Translations under genes and position numbers: made by a program
Shown: piece by piece, positions 13,594-48,394 of the stretch
How positions within the stretch are numbered: the first letter of the stretch is position 1
Layout of the letters: each line of letters starts with the position of its first letter
Notes under the pieces: generated by a model
Database searches by the model: none
What the model was told of the DNA's origin: nothing
The model's input: only the letters and a program-made list of their open reading frames with translations
Source: Dictyostelium discoideum
Taxonomy: Eukaryota
Length of the DNA: 64,000 bases
NCBI GenBank assembly: GCA_000004695.1
Contig: CM000152.2
Coordinates: 1,760,001-1,824,000, forward strand
Reading direction: 5' to 3'

Positions 13594-13667
13594 TGTGCCT
13601 GAAGGGTTTCGATCCCATGACCTATTGATTCGAAGTCAATCGCTCTTCCGAACTGAGCTACAAGCAC
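13594..13667 (-). tRNA. tRNA-Arg, anticodon TCG (UCG), 74 nt including discriminator
   Basis: Minus strand reads GTGCTTG TA GCTC AGTTCGGAA GAGC G ATTGA CTTCGAA TCAAT AGGTC ATGGG ATCGAAA CCCTT CAGGCAC A. Acceptor stem has 7 bp including one G-U; D stem GCTC/GAGC; anticodon stem ATTGA/TCAAT with U33 and A37; anticodon UCG. T arm has one T-T mismatch and an A54-type loop (ATCGAAA), so a tRNAscan score is needed. It is supported as a real pol III gene by DGLT-A-like and TRE5-A insertions at the family-typical distances upstream (15 and 47 bp). Confidence 0.6.
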
Positions 13668-13682
13668 CTTGGCTTCATGGTG

Positions 13683-13945
13683 TGTAATAAAGCTTGTTAG
13701 CTTTATAAATATATAATTAATAATTATATAATTGAATAATACTTTGTTATCTTTATTTAATATTAGTTTATATTTATAATATTCAATATTGTTTATAAAA
13801 TTATTCTTTAGTATTTATATTATTCATAATGAGTTGACAGTATTATTATTATTATTATTATATTATTTAAATGTGTGTCAACTATAATTAGTAATGTAAT
13901 ATGCATATTTAATATCTATTAATTTTATAGAGTAACTTTATTACA
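13683..13945 (-). repeat. 3' LTR of the DGLT-A-like element (263 bp)
   Basis: Identical to 16071..16333 and terminates TGTAAT.../...ATTACA. The element ORF stop codon TAA is formed by LTR bases 13941-13943 (TG-TAA-T). Confidence 0.85.
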
Positions 13946-14542
13946 TATCCCCCCCTTTTAGTTGAAAAAAATTTTTCAATCTTTTAATATAAAACACATC
14001 ATGATTTTTAATATTATCCAATACTAATTTGAATTTTAAATCGCTAACTCTCTCATGTACTTTGAAAAGACCTTCCCAAGATTTATTGAGCTTTACTGGA
14101 CCAACAGTGGATTGTAAATAGACATAATCTCCTACTTGAATATTTGAACGAGAAACTTTTTTATTAATTTGTGATAATTGGTCTTTACCAAGATTATCCT
14201 TAATGAGACAAGGACGTTTGAGGTTATTATTAACAATTTGAGCGAAATTATGAGCAAAATCTAATCTTGATAAATTTGTACATGGATTTCTTATTAATGG
14301 TTGAATTGAGGTTATTTGTGATTTAATTATTGAATTCTCTGTTTGATTTAATGATATTGATTTTAATGGTAAATTTGATGTTATTGGTGAATCTATTGGT
14401 TCTTGGAATAAGAATTCTGGAATATCGTAATCTATTGGTAGTTGTTCTTCAATAGTTGGATACGATTTGATTGATAGTATATGATGAGAATTAAAATTTT
14501 CAATTAAATGATCAGTATCTGTTAATAATTCTGATTTTGATG

Positions 14543-14594
<52 letters not shown>

Positions 14595-15869
14595 TGAATA
14601 ATCAGATACTGTTTTAAATATAGTTTGTATACATGGTTGGGTTTCTTTAGATATTAATTTGGTACCAACATTGAATTCAAGATTCTTAATGATCATTTCT
14701 TTAAAATCAATGACTAAATTTAATCCAATTATTGTATCAATGCCAAATATACAATCAATTGATGTATCATTATCTTTAACAACATTAACTTTAACTCTAG
14801 CGAATGCTTTACCTAATTTAATTGTTGTGTTACTTATTCCAATGATTTCGATTTGATTATTTGATGCTGATTTAACAGAATATTGTTTATTTTCAATCTT
14901 TAATTTTAACTTTTTAGCAATACTTTCCCAAACAATAGTAAGTGATGAACCAGTATCAATCAAACCTCTAACATTTTTATTATTTATTAATAAAGCTGCA
15001 TTCATACTATCTATTCCAATTGAATTAATTGTACTATTATTGACCATTGTAATTGAATTAGTTCTATTATTGTAATTGTTATTATTATTTTTATCTTTTG
15101 ACCAACACTCTTGAATTACATGACCTTTCTTTTTGCAATATTTACAAAATTTTGTGATTGAATTTACTTGATTTTGTGGTGCTTTATAAGGGGATGATTG
15201 TGGTGACATTTGTGGTGATCGATTATAATATTGATTTTTAAAAATTGGTGTTGAAATTTCTTCAGATTCAATTGATTGTTGTTCGTTTTGAGATGTAACA
15301 TATTGAGGGGATGTTGCAGAATAACCCGAACCCGAACCTAGATATCTTTGATTACCAAATTCTTGCAACGTCTTTGCAACTAATTGACCAGTGTACATTG
15401 ATCTACCTTTGATACGAATTGAACCATCTTCACAAGACTTTGCAATATCTATTGCTCTTTTTAATGATTTTGGTGCACATTTTGTAATTTTAATACCCAA
15501 TTCAGTACCAACAGCTGAATAAAACAATTGTATTTTAAACTTTTCTGAAATATCAACTGCTGAACATTTTGATAGAAATTTACCAATTAATATATCTAAT
15601 GTATTGTATTTATATTCTCCCAACTTTGTTAATTCTGTTAAATCATCACTATCACCAATATCAAAAGCATCTTTAAGATCTTCAATTATCTCCATTGCTG
15701 TTAAGTCTGTATCCAATGTTGCGGCATATTCCAATGCATTGTTTCTTAGTTTTCTAATAATATCAGCTTTCGATATTTCCTCGCCATGAATTAATAAGAG
15801 TAAGTGTTTGAATTTACGAAATGATAAACCTTTTCCATCACCCGAAAAAATTACGTTTTCATTATTACT

Positions 15870-15872
<3 letters not shown>
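13941..15872 (-). CDS. retrotransposon polyprotein remnant (643 aa): Gag-CCHC + aspartic protease fused in frame to integrase C-terminal domain; RT/RNase H/integrase core deleted
   Basis: Continuous ORF from ATG (15872) to a TAA supplied by the 3' LTR. Motifs are listed under the element feature. It reads through the polypurine tract as K-G-G. Confidence 0.8.
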
Positions 15873-15956
<84 letters not shown>

Positions 15957-16070
15957 TATTAAATTAAATTTAATCTAATGTAAAATTTTAATTGATTGAA
16001 TAATTTGATAACTTTATATTTATAGTATATTTTTTTTTTTTTTTTTTTTTTGAAAGACGATGTCGCCAAA

Positions 16071-16333
16071 TGTAATAAAGCTTGTTAGCTTTATAAATAT
16101 ATAATTAATAATTATATAATTGAATAATACTTTGTTATCTTTATTTAATATTAGTTTATATTTATAATATTCAATATTGTTTATAAAATTATTCTTTAGT
16201 ATTTATATTATTCATAATGAGTTGACAGTATTATTATTATTATTATTATATTATTTAAATGTGTGTCAACTATAATTAGTAATGTAATATGCATATTTAA
16301 TATCTATTAATTTTATAGAGTAACTTTATTACA
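16071..16333 (-). repeat. 5' LTR of the DGLT-A-like element (263 bp)
   Basis: Identical copy of 13683..13945. Followed on the minus strand by TT + TGGCGACATCGTC (PBS-like) and a poly(A) stretch before the Gag ATG at 15872. Confidence 0.85.
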
Positions 16334-16369
16334 GGTGTAATGAACGTCGTATTCCAATTCCTATGAAAT

Positions 16370-17255
16370 TAAGTGTGGACACACCACTCACACCTGGAAT
16401 GTGAAGATTTTAAACCATCTACAAATTGCACTAGTAGCCAATTTAATAGCTATTATATTCGAAAAAATTTGGCACAAAAGAAACAAACTCATTCACGATG
16501 AAAAAGAAATAATAATTCACAGACAACAAGTAATACGTGAACTAATTAAAACACAAAGAGCTGCATGGGACAGGACACAAGCGGTTATAAACAAAACATT
16601 AAGAATCAAATCAAAGCAACGGCCAGAAGAACAAAATAAACTAGACTCACTAATCTCGCTAAAGCTATTACAATTTAGCAGACAATGGAACTCACCTCTT
16701 CACGCAATAGAACTTCCTAAACATCTCAAAAAATACAATAATTCACTCAGTACTTTCTATAAATAAATAAAAAAAAAAAAAAAAAAATAAAAAAATAAAA
16801 AAAAAAAAAAAAAAAACTTGGGAACCCAAGTTAATCAGAAAATTTCCAGATTTTTAACTTTTTAAAGAAAAATAAAAAAAATAGAAAGAAAATAAAATGA
16901 AAATCACAAACAACACCACAAATATTAAGCAACACAAATGCCTACAAAAAATAAGCGAAATTGTGGATAAAACTCAATTAAAAAAAAAACAATTCAAATA
17001 CGTCATAAACATCAATCACGAACCAGACGATAAAATAAAAAAAGATATAGAAAAAAGTTTGGACAAAAAAGATGTTTTAATCAAAAGTAATAATATAATT
17101 CAAAATTCGAAACAAAAAAAAAAAAAAAAAAAAAAAAAAAGGTAAACCAACCCCTCTTTTAGAGACCCTGTAAAAAAAAAAAAATAAAATAAAATGAGAT
17201 CTAGCATCTCAAGGAGAAGCAAATAATAATTGCGTTATCCAATTCAAAAAAAAAA
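16370..17255 (+). mobile_element. 5'-truncated TRE5-A (DRE) copy: ORF2 3' end (16370..16766), B-module with ORF1-start duplicate (16897..17145), C-module, oligo(A) 17246..17255; flanked by 15-bp TSD CAATTCCTATGAAAT (16355..16369 and 17256..17270)
   Basis: ORF 16401..16766 is about 99 percent identical to the C-terminus of the 772-aa ORF2 at 39975..42293. 16897..17145 matches 39583..39831 (MKITNNTTNIKQHKC...). The C-module segment aaatgagatctagcatctcaaggagaagcaaataataattgcgttatccaattc matches the 3' end of the full copy. Removing the DGLT-like element and one GGTG places the truncated 5' end 47 bp upstream of tRNA-Arg, the canonical TRE5-A position. Confidence 0.75.
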
Positions 17256-17670
17256 CAATTCCTATGAAATACTTTTGATAATTTGTATATACCTTATATA
17301 CTTGTGTTACCCTTGAACACAGAGAAATAATTAATAATAAATAATAAATAATAAATAATATTATATCTCTTATATAATATTATATGTAATAAAGTATAAG
17401 TTTTGTTTATGCACAATTTGGAATAAAACAACAATGAATTAATTTTTATTTTATTTACTATTTATACTAAAATTAATTTTACTAAAGAAACCGTTGGTTA
17501 AATTTCTGAGAATAAAGTAAGAATCTTGTATTTGACGTCTTTTCAGTAACAGATCTATTTCTATATTTGTATTTTACCAAGGATAAAAACTTTATATGTT
17601 AATTTATGTCGCTTAATTATTCGCGATTATTACACAAGTAAAGGACCTCGTATTTGGACTTCTATGAAAT

Positions 17671-18156
17671 TATGAGGCTTGGCACATATTCTTCAAATGT
17701 AAATCTCACCTCAAAGACACTCAAACCTGCATTGATTACATTCAAGATAAAAGTGGGGGTTCCCAAATCACGTGGGGAGTGGAAATATTTGGGAACAAAC
17801 TGGATATTTCACTAACAGCCAACGCCATAGCTATAATCTGTGAAAGCATTTGGAGAAGAAGAAACAAAAGAATACACGAAGAAATCACTCTCAAAAAACT
17901 AAGAGAAGAAAAACCCAAACATCTATTAAAGAAAACGCAAGAAGCTGCCTTGGAAAGAACCAAAAACAACATATATAAATTAATAAGACAATCAAAAAAA
18001 GCAACAACGATTGAAGCAGCTAAAAAATTCAAATCCATCATCTCCTCTCAATTAGAAAGATTCAGAAAAAACTAGAACTCTCCTCTACACATAGTAACAC
18101 TTCCACCCAACCTAAACAAATATATAACATCACTCAACACACTCTATACCCTCAAC

Positions 18157-18202
<46 letters not shown>

Positions 18203-18363
18203 TATAAATATATAAAACTAATACCACCCGAAAAAAAAAAAAAAAAAAAGGGACCATTTTAAAATTAAAACCTACTATAATAAAATGAGATTAATCTCAA
18301 GAAGAAGCAACTCACAATTGCTTTATTCCATTCAAAAAAAAACTTCTATGAAATACTAATAAT
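17671..18363 (+). mobile_element. divergent TRE5-family 5'-truncated fragment (ORF2 C-terminal region 17779..18075, A-rich tract, C-module-like segment, oligo(A)); flanked by 13-bp TSD ACTTCTATGAAAT (17658..17670 and 18364..18376)
   Basis: ORF MEIFGNKLDISLTANAIAIICESIWRRRNKRIHEEITLKKLREEKPKHLLKKTQEAALERTKNNIYKLIRQSKK... parallels the TRE5-A ORF2 C-terminus (LQIALVANLIAIIFEKIWHKRNKLIHDEKEI...) at about 45 percent identity. The 3' module aataaaatgagattaatctcaagaagaagcaactcacaattgctttattccattc parallels the TRE5-A C-module. The TSD is nearly the same sequence as that of the neighbouring TRE5-A fragment. Confidence 0.6.
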
Positions 18364-18590
18364 ATTTTGTACAAACAGAAATAATTAACAAAAACGCACT
18401 ATTCAGTGAATGCTCAGGGTTATCAAAGGTTTCTTTATAAAATCGTTAACGTCTTTTCGGCTACATATCCATTTCTATATTTGAGTTTATCAAGGATGAA
18501 AACTTTATATGTTAATATATGTCACTTATTCATTCGCGATTATTACATTCTCATTTAATTTATTAAATAATTATTTTTTTTATTTTATTA

Positions 18591-18649
18591 GACCTATTGA
18601 TTCGAAGTCAATCGAGCTTCTGAAATGAGCTACAAGCACCAGGCTTTTC
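18591..18649 (-). pseudogene. tRNA 5'-half fragment (acceptor 5' strand through variable loop) related to tRNA-Arg(TCG); bracketed by ~30-bp direct repeats (18549..18578 and 18650..18679)
   Basis: Minus strand GGTGCTTGTAGCTCATTTCAGAAGCTCGATTGACTTCGAATCAATAGGTC equals the first 50 nt of the 13594..13667 tRNA with D-arm substitutions; the T arm and 3' acceptor are absent. Both flanks carry CTCATTTAATTTATTAAATAATTATTTTT. Confidence 0.5.
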
Positions 18650-19088
18650 TCATTTAATTTATTAAATAATTATTTTTAATTTTATTTCAATAATCATAAA
18701 AAATATCATAAAATTGTTATATTAAAAAAAAATCAAATATAAAACCAATTAAAATTGTTATATTAATTATAAAAAAAATAATAATAAAAAATAATAAATA
18801 ATAAAAAAATTAAAAAATTTAATTACAATTTTCTGTGTGAAAGAAATAAAAAAATTTGTGTCGTAAAATTAATGTAAAAAAAAATGTGCAGAATTAATTC
18901 AACATTTCTGAATTTTATTTTTTAATAAGATTAACAATGATTTTATTTTTTTTTTTTTTTTTTTTTTTTTGGGAATATTAAACCAAACCAATTACAATCA
19001 CTATAAAATAAAATAAAGAAATGAAAAAAAAAAAAAAATAAAATAAAATCATTATTAATCTTATTAATTATATATATTATAAAAAAAA

Positions 19089-20968
19089 ATGTTTAATCAA
19101 ACTAAAATATTTTTATTTTTATTTTTGTTACTATCTTTATTTGTTTTTATTGGTATGGATAAATATTTTTTTTTTTTTTTTTCATTATATTTATTAAAAT
19201 GGTTTTAATATTAACAATGGGTTAATTTTTTATTTTAGATTGTTACCCATGCGATTATAATGTAGGTTGTGATGATGGAGATGAATGTACTGGTGATTCA
19301 TGTTCAATTGATAATTTATGTATAAATATTATTATTTCATGTGATGATAGTAATTTATGTACCAGTGATTCTTGTTCAAGTATAACTGGTTGTTCTAATG
19401 TACCAATTTCATGTGACGATTGTAATGCTTGTACCGTTGATTCTTGTTTGCCATTGATTGGTTGTTGTCATGCTCCAATGGTATGTGATGATTGTAATGC
19501 TTGTACAGTTGATTCATGTTTAAATTCAACTGGTTGCTGTCATACTCCAATAGTATGTGATGATTGTAATGCTTGTACAATTGATTCTTGTTTAAATTCA
19601 ACTGGTTGTTGTCATACTCCAATGGTATGTGATGATGGTAATGCTTGTACAAATGATGGTTGTTCAAGTGAAACTGGTTGCAATCATTTGCCAATTTCAT
19701 GTGATGATTGTAATGCTTGTACATTGGATTCTTGCTCACCAATTACTGGTTGTTGTCATAGTCAAATTTCATGTGATGATTGTAATGCTTGTACATTAGA
19801 TTCTTGTTCACCAATTATTGGTTGTTGTCATACTCAAATGGTCTGTGATGATGGTAATGCTTGTACAAATGATGGTTGCTCTGAAGAAACTGGTTGTTGC
19901 CATACTCCAATTTCATGTGATGATGGCAATTCTTGTACAAATGATGGTTGCTCTGAAGAGACTGGTTGTTGTCATACTCCAATTTCATGTGATGATGGTA
20001 ATGCTTGTACATTAGATTCTTGCTCCTCAACTACTGGTTGTTGTCATACTGCAATGGTATGTGATGATGGTGATGCCTGTACATTAGATTCTTGTTCACA
20101 AACTTCTGGCTGTTGTAGTTCACCAATTTCATGTGATGATGGTAATGCATGCACTAATGATGGTTGTTCAAGTGAAACTGGTTGTATTCATTTACCAATT
20201 TCATGTGATGATGGCAATGCTTGTACAAATGATGGTTGCTCTGAAGAAACTGGTTGTTGTCACACTCCAATTTCATGTGATGATGGTAATGCTTGTACTA
20301 ATGATGGTTGCTCTGAAGAGACTGGTTGTTGTCACACTCAAATTTCATGTGATGATGGTAATGCTTGTACAAATGATGGTTGTTCAAAGGAAGATGGTTG
20401 TATTCATTTACCAATCTCATGTGACGATTGTGATGCCTGTACAGTTGATTCTTGTTCAAATGAAGATGGTTGTATTCATTTACCAATTTCATGTGACGAT
20501 TGTGATGCTTGTACAATTGATTCTTGTTTAAATTCTACTGGTGGTTGTTGTCATACTCCAATTTCATGTGATGATGGTAATGCTTGTACAAATGATGGTT
20601 GTTCAAGTGAAACTGGTTGTAATCATTTACCAATTTCATGTGATGATGGTAATGCTTGTACATTAGATTCTTGCTCACCAACTACTGGTTGTTGTCATAC
20701 TCCAATTTCATGCGATGATGGTGATGCTTGTACATTAGATTCTTGTTCACCAACTTCTGGCTGTTGTAGTTCCCCAATTTCATGTGATGATGGTAATTTA
20801 TGTACAATTGATTCCTGCTCACCTTCAACTGGTTGTTGTCATACTCCAATTTCTTGTAATGATCTCAATATGTGCACCATTGATTTCTGTCTCCCAAATT
20901 TTGGTTGTGTTCATAGATTAAGACCATCATGCCATAACTATAACGAAATTGGTATTAATATAAATTAA
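19089..20968 (+). CDS. secreted cysteine-rich protein built from ~20 tandem 26-28-aa Dicty_CTDC-type repeats (GCCHTPISCDDGNACTNDGCSEET); exons join(19089..19152,19239..20968), ~598 aa
   Basis: Exon 1 MFNQTKIFLFLFLLLSLFVFIG is a signal peptide with a GTATGG donor at 19153. Acceptor TTATTTTAG at 19237-19238; phase 1 is consistent with ORF 19448..20968. The repeat consensus is C-x-D-x-N-x-C-T-x-D-x-C-S-x-x-T-G-C-C-H-x-P-I-S. Antisense His/Tyr-rich ORFs in the track are by-products of the repeat. Confidence 0.7.
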
Positions 20969-21302
20969 ATAAAAATTAATTTTTTTTTTATAATAAATTT
21001 TTTTATTTTATAATTTAAAAATTTATTATTTATTATTATTTATTATTAGGTCATAATGGTCAATAATATTAAATATTATATTATTAATAGTGGAAAAAAA
21101 AAAATCAATTTTATAATCGTTAAGCGATTATCCAAAACATTTAAAATTTAATTTGGTGGATGTAAAAATTTCAGCATTAAAGTAATTTTGTTGCCTCTTT
21201 TTTTTTTTTACTTTTATTTTTTTATTTTCTGCGACTCCCCTTATGGAAAATCTACTTAATTTTAATTAAAATCATTCGTTTTTGATTGAAAGTCGTTAGT
21301 GG

Positions 21303-21333
<31 letters not shown>

Positions 21334-21343
21334 CTCCAACGAT

Positions 21344-21378
<35 letters not shown>

Positions 21379-21443
21379 CCTAATAATTATTCATTGATCA
21401 TTAAACATAATCATTTTATCAAAAAAATAAATAATTAATAGCC

Positions 21444-21813
21444 ATGAATACAAATGCATCTGTTTTTTATGGTTTGTAAGTATCTTTCAAAATAAACCAG
21501 ATTTAAATTTAATATTAATCAGGTTTTTTTTTTTTTTTTATTAATATTATTATTAATTTCAAATTAAATTTTTTAAAAAAGTGTTGGATTAACCATAGCA
21601 TGTATTATTCCATGGTACAATGAACGTAGAAAATTTATGGATGAAAAAAATAAGAAAATTGAAGAATCAGCTGAAAATGTTAAACAAAGACAATTGAAAC
21701 AACAACAACAACAACAACAAAATAATAATAACACTAATGACACTATTGATACATATAAACCATATGATGAAACAAACACAAAAAGAACTATACCCAATAA
21801 CCCGAAGAATTAA
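21444..21813 (+). CDS. small single-pass membrane protein (~87 aa) with C-terminal polyQ/N tail; exons join(21444..21475,21582..21813)
   Basis: ATG AAT ACA AAT GCA TCT GTT TTT TAT GGT TT | GTAAGT; acceptor AAAAAAG at 21580-21581. Product MNTNASVFYGFVGLTIACIIPWYNERRKFMDEKNKKIEESAENVKQRQLKQQQQQQQNNNNTNDTIDTYKPYDETNTKRTIPNNPKN*. Coding periodicity is good, but no family assignment could be made by eye. Confidence 0.4.
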
Positions 21814-39461: not shown

Positions 39462-39907
39462 TGATTAATCTTTTTTTTTTTTGAATTGGATAACGCAATT
39501 ATTATTTGCTTCTCCTTGAGATGCTAGATCTCATTTTATTTTATTTTTTTTTTTTTTTTTTACAGGGTCTCTAAAAGAGGGGTTAGTTTACTTTTTTTTT
39601 TTTTTTTTTTTTTTGTTTCGAATTTTGAATTGTATTATTACTTTTGATTAAAACATCTTTTTTGTCCAAACTTTTTTCTAAATCTTTTTTTATTTTATCG
39701 TCTGGTTCGTGATTGATGTTTATGACGTATTTGAATTGTTTTTTTTTTAATTGAGTTTTATCCACAATTTCGCTTATTTTTTGTAGGCATTTGTGTTGCT
39801 TAATATTTGTGGGGTTGTTTGTGATTTTCATTTTATTTTCTTTCTATTTTTTATATTTTTCTTTAAAAAGTTAAAAATCTGGAAATTTTCTGATTAACTT
39901 GGGTTCC

Positions 39908-39974
<67 letters not shown>

Positions 39975-42293
39975 TTATTTATAGAAAGTACTGAGTGAAT
40001 TATTGTATTTTTTGAGATGTTTAGGAAGTTCTATTGCGTGAAGAGGTGAGTTCCATTGTCTGCTAAATTGTAATAGCTTTAGCGAGATTAGTGAGTCTAA
40101 TTTATTTTGTTCTTCTGGCCGTTGCTTTGATTTGATTCTTAATGTTTTGTTTATAACCGCTTGTGTCCTGTCCCATGCAGCTCTTTGTGTTTTAATTAGT
40201 TCACGTATGACTTGTTGTCTGTGAATTATTATTTCTTTTTCATCGTGAATGAGTTTATTTCTTTTGTGCCAGATTTTATCGAATATAATAGCTATTAAAT
40301 TGGCTACTAGTGCAATTTGTAGATGGTTTAAAATCTTCACATTCCAGGTGTGAGTGGTGTGTCCACACTTAGTTAGGGTGTAGTTGAAGATTTCTTGTGT
40401 GTTTTTGATGTGGGCTTTGCAGTTGAAGAATATATGTTCTGAGGTCTCATCTTCCCCACACTGTTGGCATGGCATGTTGTATATTTTTGGTAGTGCTTTC
40501 AGTGTGTATCTCCATAATAGATCTCTACCTTTCATGTTTATTATTTTTTTGATTTCTTTAAATGGAAGGTGTTTGCTATTAATTTTGGTCATTATTTCTT
40601 TTTGGCCAGGAGTTGGTATGAATTTGTTGTGTTCAGGAGATTGAGTTGTCATCATATCCTCGTATATTTTTTTTAATTTTGGGAGGTGTTCGTAGTGTGT
40701 TTGTTTATTTTGTGGAGTTTTTAATTGGGTCCATGCTTGCTTGCATTGCCAGTGTAGTTGTAGTTGATTTTGTTTTGTTGTTGTTTTGTTGTTGTTGTTG
40801 TTTTTGAGTTCCTCTTCCCACAGTTTTATATATGAACTAGGAGTGTTACTTACTCTTTGGTGGAGGTATCTTTCGAATAACCATGCTTTCTGTGCTAGTT
40901 CTCTTGTCTTCAGGTTCCATAAGTTTAGGCCACCATTGATATAGTTGTTTTGTCTTCTTTGTAGTGAAAGAGAGTTTTTAGATTTTGTGTTGAAAACGAA
41001 TTTTACGATGTTATTTTCAATACTATTGTGTTGTGGTGTGGTGTTGATGTAAGTGTGGAACGTTAACTGAGATAGTGCATATGTTTTTGCCATTATGAGT
41101 CTGCCCATATAGGTTGATGAAGTTGAGTTCCATGTTACTAGTTTAGCTCTGATGTTGTCTGAGATTGTATTGATTTTGGATTTGATACCCTTATTGTTGA
41201 AGTCAAAGCCGAGGTACCTTTCGTTTGATTTTATGACGGTGTATAGCGTTCTGGTGTTCCATTTGAAAGTGATACACGAGCATTTGGTTTGGTTTATTTT
41301 TGCGCTGGTTGCTTGGCAAAACTTCTTGATCCATTCATTCATGAGGAAATGGTCCATAAAGTTGTATGCTATTGTTGCTGTATCATCGGCGAACTGTAGT
41401 ATTTTAATGGTTTCTTTGGTTACACCATTGATGCAGCGGTCATTTATTATAGTAGTTGCCATGCATTCAACCACTAATGCGAAGATAGTGGGAGAGATAG
41501 GATCCCCTTGTTTGGTTCCTCTTTTTGATGTAAAGCTTTTAGATAATGAGTTATTGATGTACCCTGATGTTTCTGATTCATTGAGTAAGTTCATTATTGT
41601 GAGGACCATTTTGAGTGGTAGTTTTAGATGTGCAAGAGTACGTAGAATGGCGTTATGTGAGATTGAATCGAATGCTTTTTCAAAATCATAAAATGTTATG
41701 ATTGGTTCCATATCCTCTTTTGTGTTAATCTCTCGTTTTATTATTTCTATTGTTGAGTTTAAGGTGATGATGTTATCGTGCAGTAGTCTTCTTGGTACGA
41801 ATCCAGTTTGGAATGGTGAGATTATTTTGTTTAAGAACTTCAGGATCCTATTGTTGATTATTTTCGAATAGATTTTGTAATCGACATTTAGAAGTGTTAT
41901 TGGTCTATAGTTATCCAGGTTGTTTGGGTCTCCTTTGTTTTTATATATAGTAATCAATATCCCTTGTTTGAAGTCCTTTGGGATTGTTGTGTTCCAGAAG
42001 TGATTGTATAGTTTTGATATTATTGGTAGAATTTCATTAATGTGGTTTTTGTAAAATGTTGGAAGGAGTCCATCTTTACCAGGTGCTTTTCCTTCTTGTA
42101 TTTTTTCAATGCCTAGTCTGATTTCGTATTCTTCTATTGGTTGATTAATTTCGTCCAATATCTTTTGATCAATCCTTTTATTGAATGTTTTTAGGAGTTC
42201 GTGGTGAGTGTCTTCGTTGCATTCTCTCTTCTGGTACAGGTTCTCGTAATATCTTCTTGCTACTTCGAGGATATCCTCGTTTTTTGTTACCAA
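39975..42293 (-). CDS. TRE5-A ORF2 reverse-transcriptase and C-terminal segment (772 aa as listed; in frame with 42351..43196)
   Basis: RT motifs are present (...ISPFQTGFVPRRLLHDNI..., QFADDTATIA). The C-terminal 120 aa are duplicated almost exactly in the truncated copy at 16401..16766. Confidence 0.85.
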   Translation of the reverse strand: MVTKNEDILEVARRYYENLYQKRECNEDTHHELLKTFNKRIDQKILDEINQPIEEYEIRLGIEKIQEGKAPGKDGLLPTFYKNHINEILPIISKLYNHFWNTTIPKDFKQGILITIYKNKGDPNNLDNYRPITLLNVDYKIYSKIINNRILKFLNKIISPFQTGFVPRRLLHDNIITLNSTIEIIKREINTKEDMEPIITFYDFEKAFDSISHNAILRTLAHLKLPLKMVLTIMNLLNESETSGYINNSLSKSFTSKRGTKQGDPISPTIFALVVECMATTIINDRCINGVTKETIKILQFADDTATIAYNFMDHFLMNEWIKKFCQATSAKINQTKCSCITFKWNTRTLYTVIKSNERYLGFDFNNKGIKSKINTISDNIRAKLVTWNSTSSTYMGRLIMAKTYALSQLTFHTYINTTPQHNSIENNIVKFVFNTKSKNSLSLQRRQNNYINGGLNLWNLKTRELAQKAWLFERYLHQRVSNTPSSYIKLWEEELKNNNNNKTTTKQNQLQLHWQCKQAWTQLKTPQNKQTHYEHLPKLKKIYEDMMTTQSPEHNKFIPTPGQKEIMTKINSKHLPFKEIKKIINMKGRDLLWRYTLKALPKIYNMPCQQCGEDETSEHIFFNCKAHIKNTQEIFNYTLTKCGHTTHTWNVKILNHLQIALVANLIAIIFDKIWHKRNKLIHDEKEIIIHRQQVIRELIKTQRAAWDRTQAVINKTLRIKSKQRPEEQNKLDSLISLKLLQFSRQWNSPLHAIELPKHLKKYNNSLSTFYK

Positions 42294-42350
42294 ACAATTG
42301 TTGCTTGGATCTAGAATTTGAGGGATTTCATTTGTCTTTCTTTGGACTTT

Positions 42351-43196
42351 TCACCTTCTGGTTAAGTATTTTGATGGTGTTTCTTTGTTGTTGATGTGGG
42401 TGTTGGTTTGGTTTGCTTGTTTTATTCTTACTTGTTCCTTTAGAATATTGTTGATCTCTTCTTTAAGGAAGATTGCTCTTGAATCTTTGGCTGTTTCGAG
42501 TTTTTCTGCGAGTTCTTTTAGTTTGTTTTTGGTTTTATTGCTTTCTCTAATTTCTATATTAATTGACAGTTTCTTTATTTCATCTTTTAGTTTCAACCAT
42601 TGTTCGCAAATGTTTAATTTGTACCATTTGCTGGTGTTCTCTTCGAATTTTTTATTGTAGTATTTAATTGTTTTATTAATTTTGAGGCTGGTTGAATTCA
42701 TTTTGAGAGTTTCTAGGTTTTGTCTCCATAGTCTTTCTCCTTTCTTTTGTTGCTCGTATTCTGGTATTTTTAATTCAATGATTACCATGTTGTGATCAGA
42801 TTTTAATTTGATTTCCTTAGTAGTAACTATTGGGTTTAGATGGAGTATCTTCTTTGAGACAAAGACCCTATCGATGGTTGATTTGTTTCTTGGAAATGTG
42901 ATTCCATTCTTAATTTCTGTAAATTCGAATTCGTCGAAGATTGTTTTAATATATTTGTTAAGGTTATTATCCACTGAACAGTCTACATTGAAGTCTCCAG
43001 TTATAATATCGCTGTGTAGTATTTCTTCTGTGAGATTTTCCTTATACCATTCATGTCTTTCGTTTGACTTTGCTGGGGCATAAATGGTTGTGCATTTGAT
43101 CTGTGTTTTTGCAATCATCCATTCGGAAGATATAATTCTTTCGTTTATTGTTTTTGTTGTTGTTTTTATTTGGGTGTTGATGATGATTTGTGACAC
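42351..43196 (-). CDS. TRE5-A ORF2 N-terminal segment (apurinic/apyrimidinic-endonuclease-like domain), terminated by an in-frame TGA at 42353..42351
   Basis: 281-aa ORF ...DHNMVIIELK... ending ...ETPSKYLTRR*. The same reading frame continues after the TGA for 19 codons (KVQRKTNEIPQILDPSNNC) into the 772-aa RT ORF, so ORF2 is interrupted by a single nonsense codon, not a frameshift. Confidence 0.75.
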   Translation of the reverse strand: MSQIIINTQIKTTTKTINERIISSEWMIAKTQIKCTTIYAPAKSNERHEWYKENLTEEILHSDIITGDFNVDCSVDNNLNKYIKTIFDEFEFTEIKNGITFPRNKSTIDRVFVSKKILHLNPIVTTKEIKLKSDHNMVIIELKIPEYEQQKKGERLWRQNLETLKMNSTSLKINKTIKYYNKKFEENTSKWYKLNICEQWLKLKDEIKKLSINIEIRESNKTKNKLKELAEKLETAKDSRAIFLKEEINNILKEQVRIKQANQTNTHINNKETPSKYLTRR

Positions 43197-43408
43197 CCCT
43201 TGTCCTGTTTTATCAATTGGTGCGTGGTGTGTTATTTTGTTTTTATATTGTTGATTTATTGAGTAAATTTTATTTGTTTTTATATTTGTTTCAGTTAGAA
43301 GTGCTGCGTCCAGCTTGTTGTTGTCTAATACGGTGTTTATTATGCTGGCAGATTGGATGGTGTTGGATCCTTGGACGTTCCAAACACCTATTCTTATTGT
43401 GTTTTTCT

Positions 43409-44743
43409 TTATAGTTTTATTTGGGGTAGATTTTTATCTACCTTTTGAAGTTTCTGGTTTATTTTGTCTTCTAACTGATCTTTACTTTGTTCGTTGTGTT
43501 GTTGGTCTTGTGTGTTTGTGGGGTTTTTTGATTTACTGATTTGTTTTAGAATTTCCTTGTTGAAGTTGTCTATATCTTCATCCATTTTTGTTTTTATGCT
43601 TTTTTGTCCATATTCACCCAATTTTGGTTTGACTGGTGTTTTGTTGGTCCTGTTTGTTTTGTCTTGTTGTTTGTTTTTTGGTGTGTTTAACAATTTACTT
43701 GGTGAATCGATAATTTTCGATGGTGTACCATAGGTTGGGCTGAAACTCATGATATGTTTTATTGGAGAGGAGAAGAACCATTGATTTGAAGGGATTGAAA
43801 GTGGGAATTCTATTTTTCTTATTGCATCAGTGTTTGGGCTGGTGAAGTCGAAGATATCATTTACCTCTCTAAGTTTTTCTTCCGTTGTTAGTCTCTTTGT
43901 TTCGCCGTGTTGTTTTATTGGTGTATTGTATGGAGATGGTGGTTCAATAGGTTTTTCTGATTTTGTTTTAATTTCTTGATTGTTTATCGATTGGGTATTG
44001 ATCTCATTCTCTATTCTTGTTAGTTCATCTACGTTTTCTAGTGATGCATCTATTACCTTTTGAGCTGTATCATCTAGGGCCATAAATGTTTTATCATTAG
44101 ATGAGGAGGTGATTGGTGGGATAATGATTGTTCTTTTTCCTTGTTTTGGTATTTGTTCTGATGTAGATTGTGGTTGTTGTTCATCTGATTGTTTTTTATT
44201 TTTGTTTTCTTCTTGATTTTCTGGTAATGAGGTTTGATCTCTCCATCCTTTGTTGGAGTGACCAATTAATGTTAGATTGTCTAGTTCAATGATAGTGTCA
44301 TATTCTTCTACGACTCTTTTCACTGTTTTGATAATTAGAGTTTCGCCTTTAATTTCAGATTTAATTAGTTTACATCCTTCATTTTCTATTACCCATTCTA
44401 TTTCTGTGAGTGATTTATACCAATCGAAATCCGTATACATATTTTTTGGTCTTAGAGTGGTTATAAATTGTCCTTTTAATTCTGCATCGAACATATTTAC
44501 AAAATAGATTACTGTACTAATACTGTCTGTGAGAATTTTGAATGTATTATTACTTTTGATTAAAACATCTTTTTTGTCCAAACTTTTTTCTAAATCTTTT
44601 TTTATTTTATCGTCTGGTTCGTGATTGATGTTTATGACGTATTTGAATTGTTTTTTTTTTAATTGAGTTTTATCCACAATTTCGCTTATTTTTTGTAGGC
44701 ATTTGTGTTGCTTAATATTTGTGGTGTTGTTTGTGATTTTCAT
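43409..44743 (-). CDS. TRE5-A ORF1 protein (444 aa)
   Basis: Long ORF MKITNNTTNIKQHKCLQKISEIVDKTQLKKKQFKYVININHEPDDKIKKDLEKSL.... It is 98-99 percent identical to the second copy at 46047..47381, and its N-terminus is duplicated in the 3' B-modules. Confidence 0.85.
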   Translation of the reverse strand: MKITNNTTNIKQHKCLQKISEIVDKTQLKKKQFKYVININHEPDDKIKKDLEKSLDKKDVLIKSNNTFKILTDSISTVIYFVNMFDAELKGQFITTLRPKNMYTDFDWYKSLTEIEWVIENEGCKLIKSEIKGETLIIKTVKRVVEEYDTIIELDNLTLIGHSNKGWRDQTSLPENQEENKNKKQSDEQQPQSTSEQIPKQGKRTIIIPPITSSSNDKTFMALDDTAQKVIDASLENVDELTRIENEINTQSINNQEIKTKSEKPIEPPSPYNTPIKQHGETKRLTTEEKLREVNDIFDFTSPNTDAIRKIEFPLSIPSNQWFFSSPIKHIMSFSPTYGTPSKIIDSPSKLLNTPKNKQQDKTNRTNKTPVKPKLGEYGQKSIKTKMDEDIDNFNKEILKQISKSKNPTNTQDQQHNEQSKDQLEDKINQKLQKVDKNLPQIKL

Positions 44744-44819
44744 TTTATTTTCTTTCTATCTTTTATATTTTTCTTTAAAAAGTTAAAAATCTGGAAATTT
44801 TCTGATTAACTTGGGTTCC

Positions 44820-44862
<43 letters not shown>

Positions 44863-44865
<3 letters not shown>

Positions 44866-45332
44866 TCTTTTTTATATGAAAAATGAAATAATCAAAAAAA
44901 GAGATTGTTGTTGTTGTTTGTTTTTTTTCGATCTGATTATTTTTTGCTTTTTTTTGAAAATTTTGCTACGCAAAATTCTCAAAACGAAACAAATAATAAA
45001 TTACAATAAAGTAAAAAGATGGCTTTTTAAGATAGTTTATTTATTTATTTATTTGTTTTTTAAGTCTTTTTTATATGAAAAATGAAATAATCAAAAAAAG
45101 AGATTGTTGTTGTTGTTTGTTTTTTTTCGATCTGATTATTTTTTGCTTTTTTTTGAAAATTTTGCTACGCAAAATTCTCAAAACGAAACAAATAATAAAT
45201 TACAATAAAGTAAAAAGATGGCTTTTTAAGATAGTTTATTTATTTATTTATTTGTTTTTTAAGTCTTTTTTATATGAAAAATGAAATAATCAAAAAAAGA
45301 GATTGTTGTTGTTGTTTGTTTTTTTTCGATCT
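44863..45332 (-). repeat. TRE5-A A-module tandem array: 199-bp unit x ~2.4 at the 5' end of the first TRE5-A copy
   Basis: Units start at 44863, 45062 and 45261 (aagtcttttttatatgaaaaatgaaataatcaaaaaaagagattgttgttgttgtttg...). The last unit is truncated at CGATCT where it meets the target-site copy at 45333. Confidence 0.7.
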
Positions 45333-45333
45333 C

Positions 45334-45348
45334 ATTGGTGATTAATCT
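45334..45348. repeat. 15-bp copy ATTGGTGATTAATCT at the junction between the first TRE5-A 5' end and the second copy's oligo(A)
   Basis: See 39447..39461. Confidence 0.7.
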
Positions 45349-45689
45349 TTTTTTTTTTTTTTTTTTTTTTTTTTGAATTGGATAACGCAATTATTATTTG
45401 CTTCTCCTTGAGATGCTAGATCTCATTTTATTTTTTTTTTTTTTTTACAGGGTCTTTTTGATTAAAACATCTTTTTTGTCCAAACTTTTTTCTAAATCTT
45501 TTTTTATTTTATCGTCTGGTTCGTGATTGATGTTTATGACGTATTTGAATTGTTTTTTTTTTTTTAATTGAGTTTTATCCACAATTTCGCTTATTTTTTG
45601 TAGGCATTTGTGTTGCTTAATATTTGTGGTGTTGTTTGTGATTTTCATTTTATTTTCTTTCTATCTTTTTTATTTTTCTGATTAACTTG

Positions 45690-45750
<61 letters not shown>

Positions 45751-46046
45751 TTATAGAAAGTACTGAGTGAATTATTGTATTTTTTGAGATGTTTAGGAAG
45801 TTCTATTGCGGGTGTTGATGATGATTTGTGACACCCCTTGTCCTGTTTTATCAATTGGTGCGTGGTGTGTTATTTTGTTTTTATATTGTTGATTTATTGA
45901 GTAAATTTTATTTGTTTTTATATTTGTTTCAGTTAGAAGTGCTGCGTCCAGCTTGTTGTTGTCTAAAACGGTGTTTATTATGCTGGCAGATTGGATGGTG
46001 TTGGATCCTTGGACGTTCCAAACACCTATTCTTATTGTGTTTTTCT

Positions 46047-47381
46047 TTATAGTTTTATTTGGGGTAGATTTTTATCTACCTTTTGAAGTTTCTGGTTTAT
46101 TTTGTCTTCTAACTGATCTTTACTTTGTTCGTTGTGTTGTTGGTCTTGTGTGTTTGTGGGGTTTTTTGATTTATTGATTTGTTTTAGAATTTCCTTGTTG
46201 AAGTTGTCTATATCTTCATCCATTTTTGTTTTTATGCTTTTTTGTCCATATTCACCCAATTTTGGTTTGACTGGTGTTTTGTTGGTCTTGTTTGTTTTGT
46301 CTTGTTGTTTCTTTTTTGGTGTGTTTAACAATTTACTTGGTGAATCGATAATTTTCGATGGTGTACCATAAGTTGGGCTGAAACTCATGATATGTTTTAT
46401 TGGAGAGGAGAAGAACCATTGATTTGAAGGGATTGAAAGTGGGAATTCTATTTTTCTTATTGCATCAGTGTTTGGGCTGGTGAAGTCGAAGATATCATTT
46501 GCCTCTCTAAGTTTTTCTTCCGTTGTTAGTCCCTTTGTTTCGCCGTGTTGTTTTATTGGTGTATTGTATGGAGATGGTGGTTCAATAGGTTTTTCTGATT
46601 TTGTTTTAATTTCTTGATTGTTTATCGATTGTGTATTGATCTCATTCTCTATTCTTGTTAGTTCATCTACGTTTTCTAGTGATGCTTCTATTACCTTTTG
46701 AGCTGTATCATCTAGGGCCATAAATGTTTTATCATTAGATGAGGATGTGATTGGTGGGATAATGATTGTTCTTTTTCCTTGTTTTGGTATTTGTTCTGAT
46801 GTAGATTGTGGTTGTTGTTCATCTGATTGTTTTTTATTTTTGTTTTCTTCTTGATTTTCTGGTAATGAGGTTTGATCTCTCCATCCTTTGTTGGAGTGTC
46901 CAATTAATGTTAGATTGTCTAGTTCAATGATAGTGTCAAATTCTTCTACGACTCTTTTCACTGTTTTGATAATTAGAGTTTCGCCTTTAATTTCTGATTT
47001 AATTAGTTTACATCCTTCATTTTCTATTACCCATTCTATTTCTGTGAGTGATTTATACCAATCAAAATCTGTATACATATTTTTTGGTCTTATAGTGGTT
47101 ATAAATTGTCCTTTTAATTCTGCATCAAACATATTTACAAAATAGATTACTGTACTAATACTGTCTGTGAGAATTTTGAATGTATTATTACTTTTGATTA
47201 AAACATCTTTTTTGTCCAAACTTTTTTCTAAATCTTTTTTTATTTTATCGTCTGGTTCGTGATTGATGTTTATGACGTATTTGAATTGTTTTTTTTTTAA
47301 TTGAGTTTTATCCACAATTTCGCTTATTTTTTGTAGGCATTTGTGTTGCTTAATATTTGTGGTGTTGTTTGTGATTTTCAT
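46047..47381 (-). CDS. TRE5-A ORF1 protein (444 aa), second copy
   Basis: Near-identical to 43409..44743, with a few substitutions (for example RPKNMYT/IRPKNMYT, EEYD/EEFD). Confidence 0.85.
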   Translation of the reverse strand: MKITNNTTNIKQHKCLQKISEIVDKTQLKKKQFKYVININHEPDDKIKKDLEKSLDKKDVLIKSNNTFKILTDSISTVIYFVNMFDAELKGQFITTIRPKNMYTDFDWYKSLTEIEWVIENEGCKLIKSEIKGETLIIKTVKRVVEEFDTIIELDNLTLIGHSNKGWRDQTSLPENQEENKNKKQSDEQQPQSTSEQIPKQGKRTIIIPPITSSSNDKTFMALDDTAQKVIEASLENVDELTRIENEINTQSINNQEIKTKSEKPIEPPSPYNTPIKQHGETKGLTTEEKLREANDIFDFTSPNTDAIRKIEFPLSIPSNQWFFSSPIKHIMSFSPTYGTPSKIIDSPSKLLNTPKKKQQDKTNKTNKTPVKPKLGEYGQKSIKTKMDEDIDNFNKEILKQINKSKNPTNTQDQQHNEQSKDQLEDKINQKLQKVDKNLPQIKL

Positions 47382-47457
47382 TTTATTTTCTTTCTATTTT
47401 TTTTATTTTTCTTTAAAAAGTTAAAAATCTGGAAATTTTCTAATTAACTTGGGTTCC

Positions 47458-47500
<43 letters not shown>

Positions 47501-47503
<3 letters not shown>

Positions 47504-47949
47504 TCTTTTTTATATGAAAAATGAAATAATCAAAAAAAGAGATTGTTGTTGTTGTTTGTTTTTTTCGATCTGATTATTTTTTGCTTTTTTTTTGAAAATT
47601 TTGCTACGCAAAATTCTCAAAACGAAACAAATAATAAATTACAATAAAGTAAAAAGATGGCTTTTTAAAATAGTTTATTTATTTATTTATTTGTTTTTTA
47701 AGTCTTTTTTATATGAAAAATGAAATAATCAAAAAAAGAGATTGTTGTTGTTGTTTGTTTTTTTCGATCTGATTATTTTTTGCTTTTTTTTTGAAAATTT
47801 TGCTACGCAAAATTCTCAAAACGAAACAAATAATAAATTACAATAAAGTAAAAAGATGGCTTTTTAAAATAGTTTATTTATTTATTTATTTGTTTTTTAA
47901 GTCTTTTTTATATGAAAAATGAAATAATCAAAAAAAGAGATTGTTGTTG
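47501..47949 (-). repeat. TRE5-A A-module tandem array (199-bp unit x ~2.3) at the 5' end of the second copy
   Basis: Units start at 47501, 47700 and 47899. The last unit is truncated at GAGATTGTTGTTG where it meets the flank copy at 47950. Confidence 0.7.
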
Positions 47950-47964
47950 ATTGGTGATTAATCT
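47950..47964. repeat. 15-bp copy ATTGGTGATTAATCT at the 5' boundary of the second TRE5-A, 31 nt upstream of tRNA-Val
   Basis: See 39447..39461. This copy lies in native tRNA-upstream context. Confidence 0.7.
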
Positions 47965-47995
47965 TAATGACATTCATAACAAAAAAATCATGTTT

Positions 47996-48069
47996 GGTTT
48001 GATGGTGTAGTTGGTTATCACGGTTGCTTTACACGCAACAGGTCTCGAGTTCGATCCTCGGTCGGATCA
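47996..48069 (+). tRNA. tRNA-Val, anticodon TAC (UAC), 74 nt including discriminator; T5 terminator at 48075..48079
   Basis: GGTTTGA TG GTGT AGTTGGTTA TCAC G GTTGC TTTACAC GCAAC AGGTC TCGAG TTCGATC CTCGG TCGGATC A. The anticodon arm GCTTTACACGC is the tRNA-Val(TAC) signature; T loop is TTCGATC; acceptor stem has 3 G-U pairs; followed by atatattttt. The TRE5-A pair ends 46 bp upstream, the canonical integration distance. Confidence 0.85.
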
Positions 48070-48394
48070 TATATTTTTAAAATTTTACGGAAAATACTAA
48101 TTAAACTTTCCTTTAAAGGATAAGCTATGATTAATCATTATTAAAAACTAAATAAACAATAAGCAAAAAGTAATCAACCTTGCATTAAAAAAAAAAATTT
48201 TTTTTTTTTTTTTTTTTTTTGTAATTATAAATCCCCGACATTCAATTTCCCATGGCCAGATGGTGTAGTCCCTTATAACACTATCACAAACAGAATTACA
48301 CATATAATCCCACGAAACATCAAAAAGGATCATAAGGTTAACATAGACTACGTAAATCTTCCAAGTTTTATTACCAAAATCCACATAGAAATCA

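Follow-up and report, generated by a model that had tools for sequence, protein, structure and literature searches.

Layered, position-specific insertions upstream of a tRNA-Arg(UCG) gene of Dictyostelium discoideum, probably about five in succession

How often can mobile elements have inserted upstream of one tRNA gene, in what order, and how much of what now looks like the flank of that gene is native? The question is raised by a tRNA-Arg(UCG) gene on the minus strand (13594-13667) of a 64-kb stretch of Dictyostelium discoideum DNA (contig CM000152.2, positions 1,760,001 to 1,824,000; hereafter the window, whose numbering is used throughout), the upstream side of which, rightwards on the plus strand, carries members of two retrotransposon families that target tRNA genes, DGLT-A, a long terminal repeat (LTR) element, and TRE5-A, a non-LTR element. 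TRE5-A (DRE) of D. discoideum was reportedly described by Marschalek et al. in 1992, and DGLT-A of the same species is said to have been described by Glockner et al. in 2001. A first-pass annotation of the window had presented the locus as a clean example of two families stacked at one gene, with a TRE5-A at -47 in the native flank and a later DGLT-A-like element at -15. Both insertions and their order stand, but the tRNA gene, the target of everything described here, was probably hit by about five successive insertions, each measured from the gene, and much of the supposed flank is an older LTR-like repeat.

The feature at 13594-13667 is a tRNA gene, as had been proposed: ARAGORN predicts a cloverleaf of tRNA-Arg with anticodon tcg on the minus strand, and Rfam RF00005 matches it over its full length with 62.9 bits (E = 2.9e-12) against a gathering threshold of 29. 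Chromosome CM142509.1 of another D. discoideum assembly (GCA_054883475.1) is 99.6% identical to the locus and has the same structure. The window was compared with itself by BLAST with a low-complexity filter, the DNA being AT-rich, and with loci fetched from other assemblies or sites, which are designated below by L-numbers (L002, L003 and so on).

The TRE5-A copy (16370-17255, plus strand) is the 3'-terminal 886 bp of a 5'-truncated element, with its 5' end facing the tRNA and its 5' junction at 16370. From that junction it carries the C-terminus of open reading frame (ORF) 2, reduced to the last 131 codons, up to a stop at 16766 that is followed by an A-run, then a B-module (about 16816-17112), a C-module (about 17141-17245) and an oligo(A) tail (17246-17255). 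The same components make up the published TRE5-A 3' end, in which the B-module duplicates the 5' untranslated region and the start of ORF1 (PMC5911963). The ORF of the B-module matches the N-terminus of ORF1 at 65 of its first 70 residues, and with the 3' end of a long copy elsewhere in the window (40374-39473) the fragment shares 95.9% identity. Unlike a full TRE5-A of about 5.65 kb with ORF1 and ORF2 (APE-RT-ZF; RT, reverse transcriptase), it consists of the last 886 bp only, and its target was an older repeat, not native flank. It is bracketed by a 15-bp target-site duplication (TSD), CAATTCCTATGAAAT, whose left copy (16355-16369) lies within the repeat named E1 below and whose right copy is at 17256-17270. 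These are exactly the two occurrences of this sequence in the window, with none on the other strand; the bases flanking them differ, so the pair is a TSD, as the first-pass annotation had assumed, rather than the centre of some longer exact repeat. The target also has a diverged homologue (about 75%), at 17635-17670 and 18342-18371, which belongs to an older layer and does not refute the TSD.

The distance from the tRNA gene to this TRE5-A amounts to 47 bp (15 bp at 13668-13682 plus 32 bp at 16338-16369) once the DGLT-A and one copy of its GGTG duplication are removed. Because 47 bp is restored only by that removal, TRE5-A came first and DGLT-A second, an order that is sound and with which the identical LTRs of the DGLT-A agree. 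Authentic TRE5-A integrations occur 46-49 bp upstream of tRNA genes, are orientation-specific and are often 5'-truncated (Siol et al. 2011, PMC3159450), like the window copy with its 47 bp, its strand opposite to that of the tRNA and its 15-bp TSD. Elsewhere in the window, a second TRE5-A cluster (39473-47990) lies upstream of tRNA-Val(UAC) (47995-48070), its 5' end about 45 bp from the tRNA; it includes two intact ORF1 copies of 444 amino acids (43409-44743 and 46047-47381) and tandem A-module repeats (about 47500-47950).

The DGLT-A (13683-16333, minus strand, oriented like the tRNA) is 2651 bp long and comprises, on that strand, a 5' LTR (16071-16333), a primer-binding site, TGGCGACATCGTCTTTC (16052-16068), set off from it by 2 bp (16069-16070), an ORF of 643 amino acids (15872-13941), a polypurine tract, AAAAGGGGGGGATA (13946-13959), abutting the 3' LTR, and the 3' LTR itself (13683-13945). 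The two LTRs are identical at 263 of 263 positions, running from TGTAATAAAG to TTATTACA with TG...CA ends. The element lies 15 bp (13668-13682) from the tRNA, and is flanked by GGTG at 13679-13682, where it ends the heptamer CATGGTG (13676-13682), and at 16334-16337, where its final two bases overlap the TG with which E1 starts. GGTG occurs 180 times in the 64 kb, or at about 0.3% per position; three other DGLT-A copies (L002, L003 and L004) likewise have 4-bp TSDs (CTAA, TCCG and CATA) and are found 12-14 bp away from tRNA-Leu genes, so that GGTG at -12 to -15 conforms to the pattern of the family. DGLT-A of D. discoideum is a Ty3/gypsy LTR retrotransposon with a consensus of 5054 bp and an LTR of 265 bp (Spaller et al. 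2016, PMC5006619, Table 1), which integrates 13-33 bp (mean 15) upstream of tRNA genes in either orientation and has a published primer-binding site 2 bp downstream of the 5' LTR (PMC5006619); the reverse complement of 16052-16068 is that primer-binding site. The assignment to this family by the first-pass annotation thus stands, while its suffix "-like" can be dropped, since primer-binding site, LTRs and TSD mark a true DGLT-A. Its coordinates for both elements, both TSDs and the distances of -15 and -47 all check out in the sequence, as do the orientation of the TRE5-A and the order of the two insertions, and the distances fit the published preferences of both families.

The window copy resembles the described family in its LTR length, primer-binding site, polypurine tract, distance from the tRNA and single ORF with a gag zinc knuckle (CX2CX4HX4C), followed by an aspartyl protease, a poly-Asn stretch and a weak match to a Tf2-1-type SH3 domain, the integrase C-terminus. 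It differs from the consensus in length (2651 versus 5054 bp) and in what the ORF encodes, Pfam finding no RT, RNase H or integrase core in the 643 amino acids, and several copies share this short form. Compared with an RT-containing copy (L005), homology ends at amino acid 418 (element position 1721, about window 14613), where the break adjoins an (ATT)n run, and the deletion is in-frame. The element is accordingly a deletion derivative of the family, not an autonomous member. The ORF shares 97% identity with DDB_G0279931, and at least six such ORFs make up the cluster to which it belongs.

The DNA that received the TRE5-A is a repeat present twice in tandem. The proximal copy, E1, consists of 34 bp (16336-16369, plus strand, beginning TGTAATGAACG) and, beyond the TRE5-A, of 364 bp (17271-17634, plus strand), the latter ending in an LTR-like block of 247 bp (17388-17634, plus strand, TGTAATAAAG...GATTATTACA). 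The more distal and older copy, E2, consists of 34 bp (17637-17670, plus strand), homologous to those of E1, and of a distal part (18355-18547, plus strand) that is internally deleted relative to E1 and likewise ends in GATTATTACA. After in silico removal of the TRE5 elements, E1 (398 bp) and E2 (227 bp) align over 219 columns with 82.6% identity (z = 17); 16326-16371, which runs from the end of the DGLT-A LTR to the start of the TRE5-A, is 76% identical to 17627-17672 over 46 nt without a gap, and 18446-18547 is 86% identical to 17532-17634. Both copies start with (T/A)GTAA, the termini of E being TGTAAT...TTATTACA and the start of E1 lying at -14, and each is split by a TRE5 exactly 34 bp from its tRNA-proximal end.

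The element that splits E2 (17671-18341, plus strand) is a putative non-A TRE5 of B- or C-type, 5'-truncated, without a B-module and with its 5' end facing the tRNA. It has an exact 13-bp TSD (13/13), ACTTCTATGAAAT, at 17658-17670, within E2, and at 18342-18354, the first A of the right copy being ambiguous with the oligo(A) tail. The fragment is 65% identical to the TRE5-A fragment and reaches 77 nt further 5'; it has an 87% identical relative at L002 5373-5942 and a 73% identical one in L012. In its homology to ORF2 and the C-module, its orientation and the logic of its target distance it resembles TRE5-B and TRE5-C (Spaller et al. 2016, Table 1). Although they sit at the same position in E1 and E2, the two TRE5 elements are independent insertions: they differ in subfamily, in 5' end and in having a B-module, and their TSDs are perfect within each pair and different between pairs.

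A profile built from the first approximately 100 bp of E recovered three further copies. One of these (L010 6868-6964, E = 2e-20; homology to the proximal part of E1 from 6867 onward) is uninterrupted, within a stack upstream of tRNA-Val(AAC), and is preceded by an LTR-like end (...CTTTATTACA) and 2 bp; the halves of E1 that TRE5-A splits here are thus contiguous elsewhere. The copy in L002 (4695-4725 matching the proximal 34 bp of E1) starts about 12 bp upstream of tRNA-Ser(AGA), and the TSD TTGTATGAAATTTAA, at the same internal position, is common to two TRE5-A elements there. The copy in L013 directly follows a TRE5-A 3' end, again at the same internal position, where two stacked TRE5-A elements account for the two occurrences of the TSD CTTCTGTGAAAT. 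E is a dispersed repeat associated with the upstream regions of tRNA genes. An LTR end, 2-4 bp and the start of E follow one another at three junctions (DGLT-A and E1, E1 and E2, and L010 6864 and 6867), the first alone being proven as an integration by a TSD; together they form the pattern that repeated integration at a constant spacing from the gene would leave, and E, LTR-like but unclassified, seems likewise to land at about -13. With E at about 13 bp from a tRNA gene, a TRE5 landing at -47 would strike it 34 bp inside.

Some candidate identities for parts of E were rejected. The block at 17388-17634 was set aside as a solo DGLT-A LTR because beyond its termini it is not significantly similar to those LTRs (z about 0.3-0.7 in either orientation; LTRs of other subfamilies were also compared). 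By eye, 14 of 19 positions at the start of E agree with the DGLT-A primer-binding region, but by shuffling the match is not significant (z about 0), and E was not taken for a leader region. The 99-bp proximal part of E1 and its 247-bp block have no similarity to each other of the kind that the LTRs of one miniature element would have.

Relatives supply the state of the locus before the stack. The syntenic region was retrieved by way of the methionine synthase cluster (the methionine synthase gene flanking the locus is DDB_G0279211) from five other assemblies. In four of these, namely two of D. discoideum (L016, GCA_054859385.1, and L017, GCA_054859355.1), one of D. citrinum (L018) and one of D. 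cf. discoideum (L019), a tRNA-Arg(tcg) gene occupies the syntenic site, with no DGLT-A, TRE5 or E upstream of it. After the tRNA, L016 and L017 continue with C TGACTT TTCTCATTTTATTTATAA, which corresponds to the window from 18548 onward (a segment termed U) and again from 18647 onward (U'). L016 is homologous to the window as far as 13669 and then again from exactly 18548 on; the 4872 bp at 13676-18547 are therefore inserted material. The tRNA and its 3' flank have diverged from L016 as much as the surrounding DNA has (about 88%). In the fifth assembly (L015 779-949 and leftwards, D. cf. discoideum GCA_054859205.1) homology ends about 54 bp downstream of the expected tRNA-Arg, and the remaining 780 bp hold no tRNA; this lineage may lack the gene or have it at another place.

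What remains of the native flank beside the gene is CTTGGCTT (13668-13675, positions -1 to -8), where homology to the orthologues ends; its homologues are CTGACTT in L016 and L017 and, beside a tRNA fragment in the window (18640-18646), CAGGCTT. From the orthologous loci and this fragment, the native flank of the tRNA-Arg gene reads C(T)TGGCTT followed by TTCTCATTTAATTT, and U (18548-18590) is its continuation from -9 outward, displaced 4.9 kb from the gene. The comparison with empty sites that the first-pass annotation had proposed yields four loci without the elements and, at the same time, a flank that is native only to -8: of the 47 bp that it had joined across the DGLT-A and taken for tRNA flank, the first 8 bp are native, and from about -9 to -14 outward the sequence is the older LTR-like repeat. 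Alignment of the joined sequence to the upstream regions of tRNA-Arg genes accordingly fails beyond -8. Nor is the locus a clean two-family example, as the same range also holds another copy of E, another TRE5 bracketed by a separate TSD, and a tRNA-Arg fragment from the 5' end.

That fragment (18591-18640, minus strand) comprises about nucleotides 1-50 of the tRNA, without the B box, and is 92% identical to 13619-13668; neither ARAGORN nor Rfam calls a tRNA there. With a leader of 7 bp it is bracketed by two 43-bp copies of the native flank (18548-18689 in all), U and, on its upstream side, U' (18647-18689), U being 93% identical to 18647-18686. The arrangement of U, tRNA fragment and U' is an old tandem duplication of about 100 bp, and as L016 shares it (reverse complement, about 21390-21540) it is older than the stack. 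Its breakpoints lie near nucleotide 50 of the tRNA and near -50, the latter close to the TRE5 insertion distance. Similar tandem 5' fragments of tRNA-Leu(CAA), with about 30 bp of flank, occur upstream of two tRNA-Leu genes (L003 9180-9300 and 11160-11276), and such 5' duplications may happen repeatedly at tRNA genes of Dictyostelium.

The history that probably connects these layers has the tRNA-Arg gene acting as a repeated landing beacon, with newcomers landing between the gene and earlier arrivals and pushing the latter outward. The LTR-like E2 would have arrived beside the tRNA first, by integration at about -13; a non-A TRE5 would then have inserted about 47 bp from the tRNA, 34 bp inside E2, generating the 13-bp TSD. 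E1 would have followed at about -13, and a TRE5-A would have entered this new proximal repeat, again 34 bp inside, at -47 and with a 15-bp TSD. Last came the 2.65-kb RT-less DGLT-A, integrating at -15 with the 4-bp TSD GGTG. The TSDs show directly that both TRE5 elements and the DGLT-A integrated here, and the order of the last two insertions, the homology of E1 with E2 and the lack of the 4.9-kb block in relatives are likewise shown; for E1 and E2, arrival by integration is inferred. Mechanistically, such positioning may reflect tethering to the TFIIIB/TFIIIC complex, which has been described for tRNA-targeted integration (PMC5911963).

Several observations weigh against parts of this history. 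Neither E1 nor E2 has a recognisable TSD (flanks CATGG/ATGG versus CAAG for E1, and CA versus TTCT for E2), and the bases CATGG (13676-13680), which were in place before the last insertion, are not accounted for. E is not a simple solo LTR, since its 247-bp block has no significant similarity to the DGLT-A LTRs beyond the termini, and it is composite: 17336-17398 is identical at 58 of 60 positions to L013 10584-10643, inverted relative to the neighbouring E. This 60-bp segment (an AT-rich stretch and TGTAATAAAGT) points to a further unclassified and fairly young repeat in the old layers. No intermediate allele, such as TRE5-A without DGLT-A, was found among the assemblies compared. Finally, in L016 and L017 an unrelated block of about 1.1 kb, which the proposed history does not explain, separates U from a proximal copy of 18 bp of U. 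It occupies L016 (reverse complement) 20203-21389 and L017 1464-2526, at about -26 of the same tRNA-Arg gene; it has no significant similarity to E1 or E2 and matches no element of the window; its final 23 nt or so bear a loose resemblance to the end of E2.

Four other histories were weighed against stepwise stacking. A TRE5-A in a native 47-bp flank followed by a DGLT-A, with ordinary flank to the right of 17270, would get both TSDs and both distances right; it holds for the two youngest layers but is refuted as a complete account, and as such is extremely unlikely, because the sequence from about -9 outward is absent at the four orthologous loci and recurs at 17637 onward and at other tRNA loci, and because 17671-18341 is a second TRE5 with a TSD of its own. 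Two tandem paralogous tRNA-Arg genes with similar upstream flanks, each struck independently at -47 by a TRE5 and at -15 by an LTR element, with the distal tRNA deleted later, would explain why the architecture of LTR end, 36 bp, TRE5, TSD and flank is present twice, and a tRNA-Arg fragment does lie nearby (18591-18640). That fragment, however, is wrongly oriented and on the wrong side of the second unit, and no tRNA remnant is found in 17271-17670 by Rfam (E <= 10) or local alignment. Only 2-4 bp separate the end of E1 from the start of E2, so that a deletion would have to have taken the tRNA and its spacer exactly; the orthologous loci hold one tRNA-Arg and the 5' fragment only; and the shared "flank" is also found at tRNA-Ser and tRNA-Val loci, which makes it a dispersed repeat rather than a paralogous flank. 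Loss of a second tRNA gene is therefore an unlikely explanation.

A single old tandem segmental duplication of LTR, 36 bp, TRE5 and flank, in which the supposed TSDs would be part of the duplicate, fits two units that are collinear and in places about 70-86% identical. It is exceedingly improbable all the same, in that the two TRE5 elements differ in subfamily, 5' truncation point and B-module, and the TSDs are perfect (15/15 and 13/13) although the target sites differ at 8 of 32 positions, from which it follows that both TRE5 insertions post-date the divergence of the two units. The lack of TSDs around E1 and E2 and the left boundary of the block at -8, without a duplication, could also mean that E1 and E2, with their TRE5 elements or without them, were assembled as a block at some other tRNA locus and reached this site by ectopic recombination or gene conversion, with TRE5-A, DGLT-A or both inserting in situ, and E-type repeats at several tRNA loci are possible donors. 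Such a transfer is very unlikely: a donor locus was not seen, the tRNA and its 3' flank, at about 88% to L016 like their surroundings, give no sign of a conversion tract, and the same stepwise stacking would still be needed at the donor locus. Stepwise stacking at the tRNA-Arg gene itself remains the probable reading.

Short DGLT-A copies of the window type (13683-16333) are also present at L002 6562-9179, L003 6509-9179 and L004 6513-9179. The two LTRs match perfectly in the window copy (263/263) and in that of L002 (268/268), and the copies of 2.67 kb in L003 and L004 (both GCA_054859385.1) differ by 0 mismatches and 5 indels, although they lie at different tRNA-Leu genes with different TSDs (TCCG versus CATA). 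Because of the identical LTRs, the near-identical copies at two tRNA-Leu genes and the absence of the stack from other strains, it may tentatively be suggested, at somewhat less than even chances, that the RT-less 2.6-kb DGLT-A, with gag, protease and an integrase tail, is a non-autonomous form that was mobilised in trans very recently in D. discoideum. No full-length DGLT-A has been reported in this species, from which amplification was inferred to be possibly a matter of the past (PMC5006619); recent trans-mobilisation, if true, would run counter to that published inference that DGLT-A no longer amplifies in D. discoideum, and the recently mobile-looking form may interest specialists in Dictyostelium transposons. 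A second case of the same nesting is seen at L002 5373-9276, where a short DGLT-A lies 14 bp upstream of tRNA-Leu(UAA) and is followed outward by TRE5-A C-module fragments and the 87% identical relative of the second TRE5, their 5' ends facing the tRNA.

Just beyond the stack, a long ORF (19448-20968) encodes about 20 cysteine-rich Dicty_CTDC repeats (Pfam E = 2e-195), the number of which varies among assemblies.

That later elements insert between a tRNA gene and an earlier element has already been stated (PMC5006619, Table 1 footnote c). L002, L010 and L013 show the same stacking, and the present locus is a well-preserved instance of known behaviour, the families, their distances upstream of tRNA genes of 13-33 bp for DGLT-A and about 48 bp for TRE5, and their stacking having all been described. 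In yeast, solo LTRs pile up upstream of tRNA genes as Ty3 sigma and Ty1 delta elements. As in those pile-ups, repeated integration at a set position from a gene transcribed by RNA polymerase III (Pol III) has left layered and nested remnants; unlike them, in a different host and with different families, LTR and non-LTR elements with two preferred distances alternate. For annotation, the locus is a caution that an apparent flank between two elements can be an older element. It adds no new principle and serves as a worked example: two targeting rulers, at about -15 and about -47, applied to one Pol III gene have produced a readable layered archive, of which relatives supply the empty state, and which is a textbook-quality record of the coexistence of position-specific retrotransposons in a gene-dense genome.

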